A stretch of 64,000 nucleotides of DNA, from contig CAYIDJ010000002.1 in NCBI GenBank assembly GCA_964362215.1, forward strand, positions 911 through 64,910, written 5' to 3'. Shown in pieces: positions 55,531 through 62,863 of this stretch. A model generated the notes under the pieces. It saw nothing but the letters and a program-made list of their open reading frames with translations, did no database searches and was not told the DNA's origin. Position numbers and translations under genes: made by a program. Numbering within the stretch: the stretch's first letter is position 1; each line of letters starts with the position of its first letter. Origin of the DNA: an uncultured Candidatus Saccharibacteria bacterium (lineage in GTDB: Bacteria; Patescibacteriota; Minisyncoccia; UBA6257; XYB1-36-10).

Positions 55531-55560
55531 TTGACAAGTGGGGGGTGGGGGGTGTATACT
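55531..55560 (+). promoter_or_regulatory. Promoter (TTGACA-18-TATACT), preceded by TTATCCACA
   Basis: ttatccaca (55514-55522), ttgaca (55531-55536), tatact (55555-55560). Confidence 0.5.
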
Positions 55561-55566
55561 GTGTGG

Positions 55567-55670
55567 TGAATGAGTGTAAATAGGCGGACTTAGGCGAAAT
55601 TCGACCCAAGTTTAACTATTAGCTCTATTGTTTGGCTAAACGGGCGCTTCGGCGCCTGTTTAGTTTTTTG
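55567..55670 (+). ncRNA. Candidate ~100-nt small RNA (promoter to intrinsic terminator)
   Basis: Bounded by the promoter above and aaacgggcgc-ttcg-gcgcctgttt + tttttt (55638-55669). No ORF and no family recognised. Confidence 0.3.
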
Positions 55671-55691
55671 CTTTCAAAAAGAGGAGGAGTT

Positions 55692-55787
55692 ATGATATTA
55701 GAGACCATATTCGGGCTTTCTAAGCGGTTGCGGACAGAGCACTCATTCAACAACAAACAATGGAGGTCACCATTCGCAGCCGCTTAG
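55692..55787 (+). CDS. Candidate 31-aa ORF (MILETIFGLSKRLRTEHSFNNKQWRSPFAAA) embedded in a 19-bp-stem hairpin
   Basis: AGAGGAGGAG SD 5 nt before the ATG. ggctttctaagcggttgcg (55714-55732) pairs with cgcagccgcttagaaagcc (55775-55793), followed by tgattttt. Confidence 0.25.
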   Translation: MILETIFGLSKRLRTEHSFNNKQWRSPFAAA

Positions 55788-55869
55788 AAAGCCTGATTTT
55801 TATTGTGGACAAGAAGGCAGTTTTGGTTTATTTTATTAAGTAATGCTGGTTTTTATCAGCAGACAGTTT

Positions 55870-55943
55870 TGCGGGATCGTCTAATGGTAGGACATCGCCC
55901 TTTGGAGGCGAGTATCTAGGTTCGAATCCTAGTCCCGCAGCCA
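55870..55943 (+). tRNA. tRNA-Gln (anticodon UUG), CCA encoded
   Basis: Acceptor tgcggga/tcccgca, anticodon loop CU-UUG-GA, T arm ctagg-ttcgaat-cctag, then 3-prime gcca. Confidence 0.9.
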
Positions 55944-56018: not shown

Positions 56019-56630
56019 ATGGAAGAAATGAAACCAATCGAAAACAAAGAAGTAGAGTTGTTAGTTTCTGATCTAGAAACTCTTTTTGCTCGACTTGCTA
56101 AACTGAAAGCAGAAAAAGGGACTCTATGGTTTGGTATTAGCGGAAGTTGGAGAAAAACAAACGAGCAAGTCGAGCAAGGAGTGCGCGAAGCTGTTCGCAA
56201 AATAATCAAGCGTGGAGATGGAATTGTTTCTGGCGGTGCGCTAAATGTAGATTATTTTGCGACTGACGAAGCACTAAAACTCAATCCTACCGCAGATAGA
56301 ATAAAAATATTTCTTCCTGTTGTTTTAGATTTATATGCGGCTCACTACCGAAAAAGAGCGACAGAGGGCGTTATAACTTCTGAACAAGCAGAAGCCCTCG
56401 TCGCTCAACTAGAAAGTTTGAGAGCCACAAACTCCGACGCCCTCATTGGAAATCCACAAAATACTATAGTAGACACAAAAACTTATTTTGAACGGAATAC
56501 AGATGTGGTAAGTGCTTCAGACGCTCTCGTTGGATTTCAGGTAAATGAGAGCGAGGGTGTCGGGGACACAGCCAAGAAGGCGATTGAGCAAGGCAAACCG
56601 GTTTGTTTAGAAAAGTTTATAATTGAATAG
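56019..56630 (+). CDS. SLOG-superfamily-like (DprA/YpsA/DUF2493-type Rossmannoid) protein
   Basis: Visibly AT-rich ORF. 'GISGSWR', 'IVSGGALNVDYFA' (compare GGAxGxD), 'SASDALVGFQ...GVGDTAKKAIEQGKPV' follow the SLOG strand-loop pattern. Assigned from motif memory only. Confidence 0.45.
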   Translation: MEEMKPIENKEVELLVSDLETLFARLAKLKAEKGTLWFGISGSWRKTNEQVEQGVREAVRKIIKRGDGIVSGGALNVDYFATDEALKLNPTADRIKIFLPVVLDLYAAHYRKRATEGVITSEQAEALVAQLESLRATNSDALIGNPQNTIVDTKTYFERNTDVVSASDALVGFQVNESEGVGDTAKKAIEQGKPVCLEKFIIE

Positions 56631-56819
56631 CCGCCGGATTTTTTCGCCGAAATGCCAGAAGTGAGGGCGCGGCGGAAGGGGGGTGTGGGGGGAATTCCGC
56701 CGCGCCCGAGCGTTCCGCCGGAGCGAAGCGGAGGCGGTCATTCTTCCGGATTCGTTTGGTAAAAAGTTCGGATTTTATTCAGGAGGGACAGCAAGTGTTC
56801 TGTTTACTAAAATAAATTT

Positions 56820-57239
56820 ATGGATATAAAAAATAAGTTGAGGGAACTTGGTTTGAATCCAGACAATTCTGTTGTAATCGGGTCCGGTATTTTGAATGCT
56901 TTGAATATTAGGGAAAGTGAAGATATTGATATAGTGGTGTCAATCGATAAGTACGAGAGCTTAGGCAGGGATAGCCGTTTTAAGAAAAAGGAAAATCATG
57001 GACGAGAAGTGCTCGCGGATGATATTTTTGAGATTGGAACCAGTTGGACGGTGTTAGATAAAGATTGGAAATTTGATGATTTTTTAGATTACTCGGATGT
57101 TATAGATGGGGTTAGATATAATACTTTACAGTTTTTATTGGATGTTAAGCGCCGATGGATCGCTGATGGGGATATACGTCAAAAAGATATAGATGACGTG
57201 AAATTGATGGAAAATTATTTGAGAGAAATGCAGAAATAA
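56820..57239 (+). CDS. Minimal Pol-beta-superfamily nucleotidyltransferase (139 aa)
   Basis: 'VVIGSGILNALNIRESEDIDIVV' is hG[GS]x9-13Dh[DE]h. A short helical C-terminus follows. No HEPN-like partner is adjacent. Confidence 0.6.
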   Translation: MDIKNKLRELGLNPDNSVVIGSGILNALNIRESEDIDIVVSIDKYESLGRDSRFKKKENHGREVLADDIFEIGTSWTVLDKDWKFDDFLDYSDVIDGVRYNTLQFLLDVKRRWIADGDIRQKDIDDVKLMENYLREMQK

Positions 57240-57254
57240 GATATCGTTGTAAAT

Positions 57255-57800
57255 ATGAAAAAAATAATTTTGTGGATAGTGGTTTTGGGGGTGGTGGGGA
57301 CAGGAGTTTGGGTGTTTGGAGGCAGGTGGCAGAAGAGTGAACAAGGGGGAGAGGGGAGTACGCAGGCGGATTACCAAAATATAGCGTACGAGATTGAAGG
57401 AAAGATGATTAAACTTATGGACGGCGCGGCTCAAACAGAAGCGGCACCGGGATCGGCGTCAATGATAACCACAAAGTATTTTGGGAATAAGGCGGAAGGG
57501 GATTTGAACGGGGACGGGTTGGCGGATGTTGTTTTTATAATCACGCAGGATGGCGGAGGGAGCGGCACGTTTTACTACGCGGTGGCGGCATTGAAGACAG
57601 ACGCGGGAGGGTACATAGGCACGAACGCGGTTTTACTGGGGGATAGAATTGCTCCGCAGACGACGGAGTTTCATGATGGAACAGTGGTAGTGAACTACGC
57701 GGAGCGAAATCCGGACGAGCCGATGACAGTGAGTCCGTCGGTGGGAGTGTCAAAATATTTGAAGGTTGAGGAGGGAAAATTAGTAATTAGTGAACAGTAA
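57255..57800 (+). CDS. Membrane-anchored/secreted hypothetical protein with FG-GAP/VCBS-like DxNGDGxxD motif
   Basis: N-terminal TM MKKIILWIVVLGVVGTGVWVF and 'GDLNGDGLADVVFI'. GC looks like the genome background. Confidence 0.5.
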   Translation: MKKIILWIVVLGVVGTGVWVFGGRWQKSEQGGEGSTQADYQNIAYEIEGKMIKLMDGAAQTEAAPGSASMITTKYFGNKAEGDLNGDGLADVVFIITQDGGGSGTFYYAVAALKTDAGGYIGTNAVLLGDRIAPQTTEFHDGTVVVNYAERNPDEPMTVSPSVGVSKYLKVEEGKLVISEQ

Positions 57801-58191
57801 CGAGTAAATAAGGAAAGGACAGAAAAGTCATTCTGACGTTACGCCCGAACATTGGAATGACACAAGGAAGTTTGAACTTTGGGGTGGTTTGTGGGAAAAT
57901 AGGCGATAGTAGAGATTTATAAAAGAATAAAGAAAGAGAGGATTTGGCGATGGTAGGTTTAGTTAATCCAGCAGGTCCGCCTGTTTTGGGGGTTTTTAAG
58001 GTGACGTATCCAAATCCAATAAAGGAGATACCGAGCGGGATTAAGCGGTTAGAGGGTCCTTTTGCGCCGGAGAGTTCGCCTTCACAAATTATTATCGCTG
58101 ACACAAGGCAGTTTCGGCGTTGGCCGGTGCTTCATCCGTACAAGGGGCATAATTTAGATGTCCTCGCGTGAAATAAATAAGGATAACGCCG

Positions 58192-58229
58192 CCCGCCTAA
58201 ATTTTTTCCTAAGCAAAAATTTAGGCGGG
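58192..58229 (+). terminator. Terminator-like hairpin of the CCCGCC-AT-rich family
   Basis: cccgcctaaatttttt-cctaag-caaaaatttaggcggg, then tttttgttt. Confidence 0.6.
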
Positions 58230-58351
58230 TTTTTGTTTATTTATGTATTGCCGAATTCAGGCAGTTTTTGTGATAAAATAAATTCCAATGAAAATAATGG
58301 CGAGAATATAAAAACTTTAACTCGGGCGGGGTTTGTATTATTATTTAGTTA

Positions 58352-61300
58352 ATGCCGGAAAGATTTCCCGACCGTCCGGAAAGAAATGAAGAAAACCTAA
58401 AGAAGGCGGGGTTAGAGTTGGAAAAAGAGGAAAAATCAGAAAAAGAGAAGATTTCGGAAGAAGTAATTCCGGAAGAAAAAACGCCCACGGAGATAGAAAA
58501 AGAAGTTATATTAAACAGTTTGAGTTTAGAAACTGAGCTTGAAAAAGACGCGACAAAAGAATTTAAAAAAGAAAGAAATGAAGAGTGGGAAGAGAAAAAG
58601 GATAATCTGACAATAACCGAGCTTAAAGAAACGGTAGAATTTAATGAATCACAAATAAAGAATCTATTGCATTACGGAGATTCTTTCTTTCACTTATCAG
58701 AAGAAGAGGGGGAGAAGATAGAGAAACTAAACATAAACTTGCCGGAAGAGACGGAGGAGGTTTATTTTTCCCTGAATAAAATAAAAGATTTTATGGAGAA
58801 GGCGCAGAATTATCGCCAAAAAGCTTTTAATCTGATCGGAATAACGGAAGAAGCAGAAGGTGTTTACATAAATAAGCAAGCGCAAGAAGGAGGATGGTCC
58901 TCTTTTCAGGAATTAAAAGAAGAGCATGAGCGACTCGAGGAAGAGATGATGAATTTAGACGAGAAACTAACTTATAACAAATCCTTGAAAAAGTTTATTT
59001 TTGATAAAGAATACCGACAAGAGAGGAAACAGGATAAGCAAAAATTTAAGGAAGTAAAAAAAGAGTACGAGCACAATGAAAAACTATTCCATCCATTAAG
59101 CTATTATAATTTTAGTATTAGAGAACAGATAAGAGGATTTAACCAACTTTTGGATATGTATGGACAAAATACTAAATATTTTACTGAAAAAATTGGAGAT
59201 AAATTAAGAGAAAAATTCATTCAGTATATAAAAAATAAACAAAAGGAAATGGCGCCGGCGGATGAGTTTAAAGATTATGATTTAAGTTTATGGGGACAAA
59301 ATTTTTCTAAGGTAAAAAACTGTTTAACAATTGAAAAAAGCTTAAAGGAGGTGATAACCGCGATGGAGGATAGGGAAAAATGGTATGTTTTTGATATTAA
59401 TAAATTAAAAGGAAGTATGGTTAAGAGTTCAATAAGTCAACACATTATTGAATTTTTTAAAGATGTTTCGTTTAATGACTGGGAGAAGTTTTGCGCGGAT
59501 AATGAAAACACCCTGACCGAAGAAATACGAAAGACAGTCAGCGGAGTTATAACGGATAGAATTCTGGAAACCAGAGAAAAATTTGACGATGGCCGTTTGC
59601 AGAGAGAGGCGGATAGCCTTAGTAACAGTTCTTTTGTTTTTGCTGATAAAGAAACAATGCCGATAGCCGTTATTAATTTACTTAATATTAGTGATTATTA
59701 TGATCGGGTTATGGTGGAAAATAGAGCAGCCGCTGTTTTTGAAAAGTTTAAAGAGGAGAATTTTGACGTTCCGGGAATAAAGAAAATTGTAAAAGCAAAG
59801 GAGATGGTTAATTCTGTTGGTGAATTTTTAAGAGGGGAAAGAGAAATGTATACTCGGTATTTATTAGCAGATGGTTTACTGGAGGCCGGTTCTTTTTACT
59901 TAAAATCAAACGATCCACGAATGCAGGTTTTGGGGGCTTTGTCTTTGCGTGAAATAGACAGATATGAAGGTGCCGACTCAAATAGATCCGATGAGGTTTA
60001 TAAAATGTTTAATAATGTTTATAAAGAAAAAAATCTTAATGAACGGGTAATAGGGGCCATTGGAAAAGTAGCCTTAGATGAGGTATGGTACACAAAAAAT
60101 TTTTATGCCAAGCAAATAGCTTTTAATTTAATTAAAGATTATGACCGTTTGTCTAATGTTAACCAGTGGAAAATAAAGGAGGCGGCGCCCAGGATGGTAG
60201 GATTGTTTGTTTCTAAAAATGAAGTTAGTAATATAAACGAAGAAGAAGCGGAAGTTTTAGCTAAAGTTCTTGAAATAGAACCAAAGGACCTTATAAAAAC
60301 AATTAATTTAATTAATTTGGCAATTAATACTCTTAACGTCAACCATGATTACAGCCCGTTAGAATTTAAACTTTATCATCGTTTGGCTAAAATTGAAGAT
60401 GCGGAAGATTTTTTGGTGAAATTAAATAATCTGGGTTGTCATTTTAGAATAGACAGCACGGATAAATTATTGAAAATACACGAAAACAAAGAGGAATTCA
60501 TAAGTAGAGTTAAACAATTAAAAAATTCCCTTAGTGATTCCGCCTCTTTTAATTTCATAGAGAGAGATGAAGATGTTTATAAAATAACCGATAGCAATCT
60601 TTTAGAAATTTTAGGCAGTTTTAAATCAGATAAGGGTTTGCAGAATTTTGTTCTAAACAATCTTGATAAAATCTTGGCTATTACTTCAGAAAGAAGAGAG
60701 AATTACATTAAAATTCTTGATAAAATAGAACATTCTCCCTCGCAAGAAATTCAAAAACTTAAAAACCAGATTCTTTCTGAAATTGTTTCCACTGATAATC
60801 CGGAGATATCTTATGAAAAGATAGAGCAAGTATTTTTAAAGAACAATCTGCCGGCGGTAGGGAAAATTTACCGCATTTTCGAGACGCTTTATCCGGCATA
60901 TAAAATAAAAAGTTTGATAAATTATCAATCCAGTCCGGTTTTACAGAAAGCCGGACCGACCAGACGGCGCCATATTTTTTACCAAGATTTATTAAAAACG
61001 CATATCCGTTCGGCTAACCGTTCACTTAGAGAATACGCGGAAGCTTTTTTAAGCGGCGAGGGAGTATTGGCTAAAGCGGAGCGGGACGGATTTGATAATT
61101 TAGCAGGAGAAGAAAAAGAGCGGTTAAAATATTTCTTCGGACGATTGAATACATTATTTTTAAGTTCTTCGCTGGGAGAAAACATCAAGGCGGTTGAAAG
61201 AGGTTTATCTTTAGAAGACGAATATAAAAGATTAAAGATAAGTTTGGTGGTTAAAGAAGGACAAACCGTTAAGGAGAGGGTGGAAGAAATGTTTTTGCGA

Positions 61301-62863
61301 CCGGCCGGGCTTGATTCCCTGGGAGCTCTGCTCGATGAAATGGCGGAAGCTAAAAGAGAAGCCCACGAACGAAATATGGAATTGGCTAAAAATCTTAAGG
61401 CCGGTGATCTTAATTTATCTCCGGGAGATATACTGAAGGGGGTTAATGAGAAATTTATTAACTTAATTTTACAAAATGGTTCCGTTTCCAAAGAGTTTTT
61501 AGGCGCGGATACGCCGGGTTCGGATAGTACTCCTTTTGACACGGACGTCAGTGTAGTTTTAAAGCAGGACGTGGAAAACGGAAAAAATAACGCCTTTAAA
61601 AATTCAATGGCGGCTTCTTTTGGTAATCTTGTCTTAGCCATACGCGACCGGGGGCAATTCCAAGTTACAAGACGGCATGGCCAAGAACTTGGCCGCCAGC
61701 AAACAGATAACGGTAAAATGGAACTTTTTAGCACTGGCGGGGGAGGACAACATTACGGCGTCCGTACCGGGTTTCCCTCCACGGAGATAGATTTTATTAT
61801 CGCCAGAGATTCTTTTCTTGAAAAAGGTTATGGCTACAACGAGGGGAAGGTGGAAGAATTGTATTATGAAATAGCCCAAAACGGATTTTACATACCGGTA
61901 ACAGATGAGGAAGGAGAAATTGTTTTCACTCCGGAAATGTACAACGAGTACCGAAAAACATTTGACGGTTTGGACCGTTTTGACGGTAATCCATTGGAAA
62001 TTAAAAGATTGTCAACTGGCGATTCTTATTTACAACAGGTTAAAGAAATAACTAAGGAAATGAAAAAAGACAGAAAAGAGGTGGTAAATTTATCCGACGG
62101 GATTATCAAAGAAGTCCGCCGAGCTTTAGGTGTTTTGGGAATAACTTTTAAGGATAAATATGATCCGGGAATATTGGGGGCGGAACTTTTAGATATCGGC
62201 TCTACCGGGCGGGGAACCAATATGCCAGGCGATTATGATTTTGATTTTACTTTAAAATTAGATGATAAGGATTTTGAATCCGCGGAGGTGATAGCTAAAA
62301 ATATAAAATCGGAAATGGAGTTTCAGGAGGATAAATCTCATCCGGAGGCAAGCGGCTATTATCAGTTGCGTTTGATGGGAATTACTAAAATCGGAAAAAT
62401 TAAATTAAAAGAATCACTTGACCTTGATATTGGATTTGTTAAAAAATCGGATTTGGCGGTTTTTGGTTCTCATAATGCCATTGAAGAAAAATTAGAGTGG
62501 ATAAAAGATAACTTGGGAGAAGACGCCTATTGGGAAGTTTTGGGTAATATTGTCTTGGCTAAAAAAATCCTTAAAGAGGGCGGGGCTTATAAAAGGGTAG
62601 AGCAAGGGGGGTTTGGCGGTATCGGGACGGAAAATTGGATATTGGCTAATTCCGGTAATTTGGAAGAAGCGTTTAGAACTTTCCGCGGGGCCGCTTATGA
62701 AAATGGAAAAATTATTTCCTTTGATGAATTTATGAAAAAATATAAAATTTTTAACGCCGGTATGAATATTAAACATCTTTTCCACGATAACTATATTAAA
62801 AATATGACGGAGAGCGGATATGCTGCTTTTGTTAAAACGGCTGATGAGTTTTTATCTAAATAA
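58352..62863 (+). CDS. Giant 1503-aa protein: E/K-rich N-terminus, long helical middle, C-terminal class-I (archaeal CCA/PAP-like) nucleotidyltransferase domain
   Basis: A single uninterrupted ORF that is strongly AT-rich. aa 1283-1298 GSTGRGTNMPGDYDFD fits the Pol-beta motif. 'LDLDIGF' is a candidate third-acid strand. 'KILKEGGAYKRVEQGGFGGIGTENWIL' resembles the GFSGY..ELL neck motif. No signal peptide or TM. Confidence 0.7.
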   Translation: MPERFPDRPERNEENLKKAGLELEKEEKSEKEKISEEVIPEEKTPTEIEKEVILNSLSLETELEKDATKEFKKERNEEWEEKKDNLTITELKETVEFNESQIKNLLHYGDSFFHLSEEEGEKIEKLNINLPEETEEVYFSLNKIKDFMEKAQNYRQKAFNLIGITEEAEGVYINKQAQEGGWSSFQELKEEHERLEEEMMNLDEKLTYNKSLKKFIFDKEYRQERKQDKQKFKEVKKEYEHNEKLFHPLSYYNFSIREQIRGFNQLLDMYGQNTKYFTEKIGDKLREKFIQYIKNKQKEMAPADEFKDYDLSLWGQNFSKVKNCLTIEKSLKEVITAMEDREKWYVFDINKLKGSMVKSSISQHIIEFFKDVSFNDWEKFCADNENTLTEEIRKTVSGVITDRILETREKFDDGRLQREADSLSNSSFVFADKETMPIAVINLLNISDYYDRVMVENRAAAVFEKFKEENFDVPGIKKIVKAKEMVNSVGEFLRGEREMYTRYLLADGLLEAGSFYLKSNDPRMQVLGALSLREIDRYEGADSNRSDEVYKMFNNVYKEKNLNERVIGAIGKVALDEVWYTKNFYAKQIAFNLIKDYDRLSNVNQWKIKEAAPRMVGLFVSKNEVSNINEEEAEVLAKVLEIEPKDLIKTINLINLAINTLNVNHDYSPLEFKLYHRLAKIEDAEDFLVKLNNLGCHFRIDSTDKLLKIHENKEEFISRVKQLKNSLSDSASFNFIERDEDVYKITDSNLLEILGSFKSDKGLQNFVLNNLDKILAITSERRENYIKILDKIEHSPSQEIQKLKNQILSEIVSTDNPEISYEKIEQVFLKNNLPAVGKIYRIFETLYPAYKIKSLINYQSSPVLQKAGPTRRRHIFYQDLLKTHIRSANRSLREYAEAFLSGEGVLAKAERDGFDNLAGEEKERLKYFFGRLNTLFLSSSLGENIKAVERGLSLEDEYKRLKISLVVKEGQTVKERVEEMFLRPAGLDSLGALLDEMAEAKREAHERNMELAKNLKAGDLNLSPGDILKGVNEKFINLILQNGSVSKEFLGADTPGSDSTPFDTDVSVVLKQDVENGKNNAFKNSMAASFGNLVLAIRDRGQFQVTRRHGQELGRQQTDNGKMELFSTGGGGQHYGVRTGFPSTEIDFIIARDSFLEKGYGYNEGKVEELYYEIAQNGFYIPVTDEEGEIVFTPEMYNEYRKTFDGLDRFDGNPLEIKRLSTGDSYLQQVKEITKEMKKDRKEVVNLSDGIIKEVRRALGVLGITFKDKYDPGILGAELLDIGSTGRGTNMPGDYDFDFTLKLDDKDFESAEVIAKNIKSEMEFQEDKSHPEASGYYQLRLMGITKIGKIKLKESLDLDIGFVKKSDLAVFGSHNAIEEKLEWIKDNLGEDAYWEVLGNIVLAKKILKEGGAYKRVEQGGFGGIGTENWILANSGNLEEAFRTFRGAAYENGKIISFDEFMKKYKIFNAGMNIKHLFHDNYIKNMTESGYAAFVKTADEFLSK

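Follow-up and report, generated by a model that had tools for sequence, protein, structure and literature searches.

The two small genes that follow tRNA-Gln, encoding a DprA-like SLOG protein (ORF1) and a minimal nucleotidyltransferase (NTase; ORF2), are most likely independent stand-alone genes that lie side by side by chance, forming neither a two-gene system nor a trio with the giant ORF downstream. They were found in a 64,000-nucleotide stretch of DNA, referred to here as the window, which resembles a Patescibacteria (CPR) genome in having nearly all genes on the + strand and a strong GC skew. Hainich groundwater metagenomes hold contigs identical to the window. In the proposed explanation, ORF1 and ORF2 would be fortuitous neighbours within a mosaic stretch past the tRNA in one groundwater Patescibacteria lineage. 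The region contains the following features.

55870-55943, + strand: tRNA-Gln (anticodon TTG), found by ARAGORN and by Rfam model RF00005 (64.2 bits), directly 5' of the ORF1-ORF2 pair
56019-56630, + strand: ORF1, 203 aa, a short SLOG (Rossmannoid) protein of the DprA clade
about 56664-56710, + strand: GC-rich inverted repeat GGGCGCGGCGGAA...TTCCGCCGCGCCC within the ORF1-ORF2 spacer, read from the sequence
56820-57239, + strand: ORF2, 139 aa, a stand-alone minimal nucleotidyltransferase of the Pol-beta fold
57255-57800, + strand: ORF3, 181 aa, with an N-terminal hydrophobic anchor or signal and a weak FG-GAP-like repeat
58191-58230, + strand: terminator-like hairpin between ORF3 and the giant ORF, a 16-pair stem followed by a T-run, TTTTTGTTT
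58352-62863, + strand: giant ORF, 1503 aa, 36% GC, a near-orphan with an NTase-like motif at 62198-62428

ORF1 starts 76 nt after the last base of tRNA-Gln, and the coordinates and motifs given for both ORFs in the original prediction were confirmed. The two had also been described as an AT-rich pair. ORF1 (41.5% GC) and ORF2 (35.5%) do lie below the window mean of 47.6%, as does the giant ORF (36.0%), but the spacer between the pair is 55% GC and ORF3 is 50.4%. These shifts from gene to gene mean that the stretch after tRNA-Gln is compositionally mosaic rather than uniformly AT-rich. The spacer itself (56631-56819) is 189 nt long and holds a 13-bp perfect inverted repeat around a G-rich loop, and the region 56625-56825 has a predicted fold of -78.7 kcal/mol (z = -2.56 against shuffles). 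The repeat is probably a transcript boundary or structure; a terminator and a small repeated element are both candidates. A GC-rich hairpin spacer combined with composition that changes gene by gene counts in favour of ORF1 and ORF2 being independent. Weak copies of the G-rich arm of the repeat occur at 62592 and 63538.

ORF3 starts 15 nt after ORF2 and in the window is probably co-transcribed with it. It lies beside ORF2 only in identical copies of the window organism (L045, L127-L129) and was not found in the ORF2-relative loci L001-L044, hence its pairing with ORF2 is not conserved. The predicted hairpin at 58191-58230 sets the putative ORF2-ORF3 unit apart from the giant ORF. Upstream of tRNA-Gln, a region of ~340 nt (55531-55869) contains a promoter-like site close to consensus at 55531-55560 (TTGACA-18-TATACT), a hairpin of 14 bp at 55634-55675 that has a T-run, and an inverted repeat of 22 nt at 55711-55796, with no Rfam match in the region. 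It may be a leader or small RNA ahead of the tRNA. An Rfam scan of 55.4-58.4 kb returned the tRNA as its sole match.

Independence of the genes is most evident from the loci of their relatives, about 130 genome pieces in all. The sample comprised 44 species-level genome loci for ORF2 (27-72% identity, many CPR classes) and 80 metagenome loci for ORF1 (55-100% identity), covering up to ±10 kb, with many of the metagenome contigs being short. No relative of ORF1 or of the giant ORF was found within ±10 kb of ORF2 relatives at any of the 44 loci, either by tblastn or on re-checking with family HMMs. ORF2 was present at a single one of the 80 ORF1 loci, L045, which is 100% identical to the window and represents the same organism. 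Even where ORF1 is 94-96% identical, the surrounding genes are entirely different. BLAST clustering of the ±4 surrounding genes yielded nothing at four or more loci except strain duplicates; this clustering missed the HIT and Rossmann-like neighbours discussed below, which were revealed by seed HMMs and a Pfam census. The conserved neighbourhood linkage of a SLOG plus nucleotide-synthetase conflict system was thus not found (0/44, and 1/80 from the window's own copy).

Conflict systems exist in which SLOG domains partner nucleotide-generating enzymes. The original prediction had suggested that the three genes could form a single nucleotide-centred system, and had set conservation of the neighbourhood as the check on it. 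As relatives of ORF1, ORF2, and the giant ORF are not co-localised in other genomes, the check failed and the proposed system is not supported. A lineage-specific version may be envisaged, in which ORF2, possibly with the giant NTase, would make or attach a nucleotide and ORF1 would sense or process it. Both fold assignments behind it are correct, and SLOG domains have been predicted to sense or process nucleotide signals (Burroughs et al. 2015, as summarised in PMC6459960). ORF2 relatives are also loosely tied to HIT proteins and a Rossmann-like protein, a weak echo of the idea, and one relative of the giant ORF has a sub-threshold SMODS match. Nonetheless, the missing conserved linkage largely refutes such a module and makes it very unlikely. 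With the linkage not conserved, a SLOG + NTase pairing has no significance as a system.

The C-terminal Pol-beta NTase-like motif of the giant ORF is real, as had been claimed, and it is reasonable to regard the product as a large NTase protein. The motif spans residues 1283-1298 (GS.GRGT...D.D) and D1359. Only four relatives were found among 5.8 billion proteins, with ~30% identity over the C-terminal half, and the giant ORF alone has the N-terminal ~790 residues. All five family members have the pattern GS.GRGT...DxD...D without variation, followed by a conserved GGFGGxGxENWIL block. The SMODS match in one relative falls below threshold (E 3.6e-4, 21.2 bits vs a cut-off of 26.5). Unrelated housekeeping genes surround the two of the four relatives whose neighbours were examined. 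The giant ORF is an independent near-orphan.

ORF1 was correctly recognised as a SLOG/DprA-like protein, with fold matches and a Pfam match above the gathering score in agreement. It has the Rossmannoid fold common to Smf/DprA, LOG, YpsA, and MoCo-carrier proteins. The SLOG substrate-binding loop is defined by a glycine-rich motif of the GxD/E type (PMC6459960), which in ORF1 is SGGALNVD, with G72, G73, and D78 invariant among 36 relatives. The DprA Rossmann-fold domain PF02481 scores 32.6 bits (gathering score 29.6, E 5.7e-8) and the ORF1-family profile matches H. pylori DprA at E 9.5e-5. The structure model displays three short N-terminal helices (residues 7-33), where one extra helix had been predicted, followed by the Rossmann core with a helical insertion of ~40 residues (about 100-137). 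The protein ends at residue 203, directly after the core.

These features differentiate ORF1 from DprA/Smf proteins (PF02481; H. pylori DprA, 4ljk; R. palustris, 3maj), with which it shares the Rossmannoid domain and the G-x-x-R and SGGAxxVD loops. Canonical DprAs combine the RF (Rossmann) domain with a SAM and/or Z-alpha/winged-helix domain (PMC6533540), whereas the structure model of ORF1 contains neither a SAM domain nor a C-terminal winged-helix/Z-alpha domain. At only 203 aa, ORF1 scores 30.8 bits against the TIGR00732 equivalog, far below the cut-off of 191.15. It carries the additional helical insertion, and genes for competence or recombination are not consistently linked to it. Its acidic pI of 5.1 is atypical for an ssDNA-binding DprA, yet not decisive. 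Most likely, the G-x-x-R and SGGAxxVD loops allow ORF1 to bind a nucleotide derivative or single-stranded nucleic acid without a partner, the choice of ligand being suggested by the fold. It would then act alone, as a minimal DprA-type SLOG protein on ssDNA or a nucleotide derivative.

The ORF1 family is tightly conserved, with invariant W37, G42, W44, G72, G73, and D78 and an FQVN motif. The 923 relatives detected are mostly 168-210 aa long and almost all from Patescibacteria. Some databases and annotation pipelines name these proteins 'DprA'. A search with the ORF1-family HMM found no second, canonical DprA in the window and 1.4 Mb of relatives' loci, which says little as the loci are not whole genomes. 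Annotated contexts of ORF1 relatives are mixed, including L21/RecR/DnaB, L10/L12 with a phosphatase, and a recombinase fragment. BLAST clustering of neighbours identified no partner beyond resampling of near-identical strains; alpha/beta hydrolase, Macro, and MazF proteins were considered as partners and left uncounted as they mostly reflect such repeat sampling. The loci L046-L056, whose ORF1 relatives are 94-96% identical at the amino acid level, share none of nine genes of the window that were compared, among them GtrA, the alpha/beta hydrolase, and TIM. ORF1 is either unusually well conserved between separate lineages or mobile between genomes. The GC content of ORF1 equals that of its flanks, which argues against recent transfer.

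ORF2 is a minimal Pol-beta NTase, as had been read from its motifs, and is probably catalytically competent. Its catalytic set is complete, with G21-S22-G23, a gap of 11 residues, D35-I-D37, and the invariant third carboxylate E71. This corresponds to the superfamily motif hG[GS]-x9-13-Dh[DE]h plus a third carboxylate on an NTase fold, and the fold matches agree. The closest structural neighbourhood consists of small NTases like TM1012, LnuA, and ANT(2''), with MenT also listed there. At the sequence level, no Pfam family matches ORF2 at E<=1, including NTP_transf_2 and the Polbeta families, and neither phmmer nor profile searches turned up anything above noise in the PDB. Distant members of the ORF2 family have only sub-threshold matches to DUF2204, DUF6036, and NTP_transf_5. 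The family of 922 clusters, largely from Patescibacteria (CPR), is stand-alone in nearly all of them and hence by default, and it lies outside every curated family model. Rare longer members carry extra domains (pyrophosphatase fragment, DUF5655, AAA_33, glyoxalase, STAS, cupin), which were rejected as a clue to function as they are too varied; some may be gene-call read-throughs.

Comparison with known proteins separates ORF2 from each of its structural neighbours. Identity to TM1012 (PDB 2ewr) of Thermotoga maritima is 17-20%, with no sequence-level match even by profile. TM1012 is an uncharacterised putative nucleotidyltransferase; as it has no known function, the match gives the fold and class of ORF2 but not its substrate. 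ORF2 has no profile match to the families of the antibiotic nucleotidyltransferases LnuA and ANT(2'')-Ia. Unlike these, which are found in resistance cassettes, the ORF2 family adjoins tRNA genes and HIT proteins, largely in CPR genomes. Based on the residues and fold, ORF2 most likely transfers NMP from an NTP onto the hydroxyl of a putative acceptor, either a small molecule or the 3' end of an RNA.

The original prediction had described ORF2 as an orphan MNT. It resembles the MNT of HEPN-MNT pairs in being a minimal Pol-beta NTase core of ~140 aa with GS...DxD, and no HEPN partner lies beside it; ORF3 has neither an Rx4-6H motif nor a HEPN match. However, its place in the TM1012/LnuA/ANT(2'')/MenT structural neighbourhood, which differs from that of MNTs, and the 922 largely stand-alone clusters show that it is not one half of an MNT-HEPN pair. 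Compared with the tRNA-modifying NTase toxins of the MenT/AbiEii type, ORF2 is smaller and acidic, with no cognate antitoxin gene and no AbiEii profile match. No conserved gene occupies the antitoxin slot upstream of ORF2 relatives, and no recurrent partner was detected across 48 loci except HIT and the Rossmann-like protein.

These observations bear on whether ORF2 could be an orphan toxin or toxin-antitoxin remnant (MenT/AbiEii- or MNT-like), with ORF1 as a DprA-type antitoxin resembling ShosA or PsyrA. ORF1 does match ShosA (the Shosta antitoxin, 8zva) and PsyrA, but any DprA-like Rossmann domain would produce these matches. PsyrT, the partner of PsyrA, is a RecQ-like helicase. ShosA has a SAM domain and pairs with the adjacent PRTase toxin ShosT (PMC11961720), while ORF1 has neither the domain nor such a neighbour. 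Both types of partner, the ShosT PRTase and the PsyrT RecQ-like helicase, are absent from the window, and neither ranks among the 25 most frequent Pfam families in a set of 148 genes neighbouring ORF1 relatives. The ORF2 family is strongly conserved and acidic (median pI 5.4), and identity declines roughly with taxonomy, giving it a housekeeping-type look. Combined with its stand-alone occurrence and the lack of a recurrent upstream partner, this makes a toxin role for ORF2 extremely improbable.

The most consistent feature of ORF2 relatives is their position relative to tRNA genes. A same-strand tRNA lies within 200 nt 5' of the gene in 9/41 ORF2 relatives compared to 20/763 background genes from the same loci (p=4.5e-6), and within 1 kb upstream in 12/40 compared to 48/724 (p=1.8e-5). 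Each of the nine cases within 200 nt involves a different tRNA gene. Another four metagenomic relatives, outside the enrichment test, likewise follow a same-strand tRNA, in every case at a distance of 117-1480 nt, and in two of these one or two genes intervene between the tRNA and the ORF2 relative, akin to the window layout. Besides the window (56820-57239), loci with an upstream tRNA are L002, L003, L004, L014, L016, L018, L027, L032, L037, L136, L140, L144, and L146. Across CPR bacteria, the ORF2 family is best pictured as a single-gene unit that prefers sites just 3' of tRNA genes.

Adjacency to tRNA genes may also hint at mobile elements, with everything between and including tRNA-Gln and the giant ORF being a horizontally acquired island whose three genes were the joint cargo of one element. 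The site adjoins a tRNA, ORF2 relatives are enriched at such sites, and the GC content of ORF2 (35.5%) and the giant ORF (36%) is below the window mean of 47.6%; across ORF2 relatives the median GC is 3.9 points under that of the flanks. Against this, ORF1 matches its flanks in GC across loci, and ORF3 and the spacer are host-like or higher, pointing to a mosaic segment rather than a single block. No integrase or recombinase ORF is present in 55.4-63.1 kb. No repeat of at least 11 nt of the tRNA-Gln 3' end occurs elsewhere in the window, and hence there is no att-like island boundary; the nine tRNA-adjacent ORF2 loci likewise lack att-like copies of the tRNA 3' end, the one match in L018 being a second tRNA-Leu gene. 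An integrative island was rejected on these grounds. Phage origin was likewise rejected, as 2.9 million viral contigs, searched with both family alignments, contain no relatives of either the ORF1 or the ORF2 family. Acquisition of the three genes as joint cargo is thus improbable, and chance juxtaposition of independent genes remains the preferred reading.

In a minority of genomes, genes of the ORF2 family adjoin those for hydrolases of the HIT family, small P-loop kinases, and a small Rossmann-like protein. In a Pfam census of 150 neighbours of ORF2 relatives (±2 genes), HIT was the commonest family with 7 members, ahead of small P-loop kinases (AAA_18) with 5 and then methyltransferases. 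Using a family HMM, HIT proteins were found at 8/48 ORF2 loci, six of them within 250 nt, and at 0/82 ORF1 loci (p=2e-4). The HIT genes mostly abut or overlap the NTase gene. HIT neighbours of ORF2 relatives lie at the following positions.

L001, 2222-2728
L039, 9508-10014
L146, 2514-3038
L030, 10680-11087
L033, 5154-5615
L140, 3407-3823
L025, 7999-8355

The HIT neighbours are mutually divergent (28-95% identity), indicating independent occurrences. This suggests a possible functional NTase/HIT pair in CPR bacteria and, more speculatively, a nucleotidyl adduct that could be re-hydrolysed. A small Rossmann-like family of 137 aa is also found near ORF2 relatives in four loci. In L078, an ORF1 relative is followed after 107 nt by a fifth member, the sole link between the ORF1 and ORF2 neighbourhoods. 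The Rossmann-like proteins are located as follows.

L140, 2574-2984
L005, 9574-9984
L006, 1570-1995
L043, 9364-9780
L078, 10689-11150

Identification of this 137-aa neighbour as a nucleoside 2-deoxyribosyltransferase ('NDT-like') was rejected, as PF05014 matches only below threshold (E 0.007-0.07) and a profile search of the PDB gave no support for it. Overall, ORF2 relatives seem to be surrounded by a loose set of small enzymes that handle nucleotides, with no fixed operon.

Some observations do speak against a chance pairing of ORF1 and ORF2 and would fit a functional coupling confined to one lineage. Both genes run in the same direction across a gap of only 189 nt, and the order of a Rossmannoid protein then an NTase recurs loosely in L005 and L140, where the other, small Rossmann-like protein lies 17 nt upstream of the ORF2 relative. 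The single occurrence of this protein family beside an ORF1 relative, in L078, counts on the same side. The gene order in L140 is tRNA-Leu, Rossmann-like protein, ORF2 relative, HIT. ORF1 could fill the same Rossmannoid slot ahead of ORF2. In an extended form of this idea, the ORF2 family would be a Patescibacteria-wide, tRNA-linked NTase in a reversible nucleotidylation cycle with HIT hydrolases and an exchangeable Rossmannoid third component that binds nucleosides or nucleotides, and the substrate would be tRNA 3' ends or else a nucleotide or nucleoside from salvage. The SLOG protein ORF1 would then take the Rossmannoid position in the window, in the order tRNA, Rossmannoid protein, NTase as in L140 and L005. 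Such a cycle is unlikely but, if it exists, the ORF1-ORF2 pairing would represent one form of a modular CPR system that has not been described before.

Under the preferred reading of independent genes, the remaining value lies in two highly conserved Patescibacteria families with high-confidence structure models that belong to known superfamilies. The statistically well-supported preference of the ORF2 family for tRNA 3' sites and HIT neighbours is a lead for nucleotide salvage or tRNA maintenance in reduced-genome bacteria. Elsewhere in the window, a bacterial RNase P RNA of class A was identified at 47568-48063 (214.5 bits); at 496 nt against a model of 367 positions, it contains insertions.
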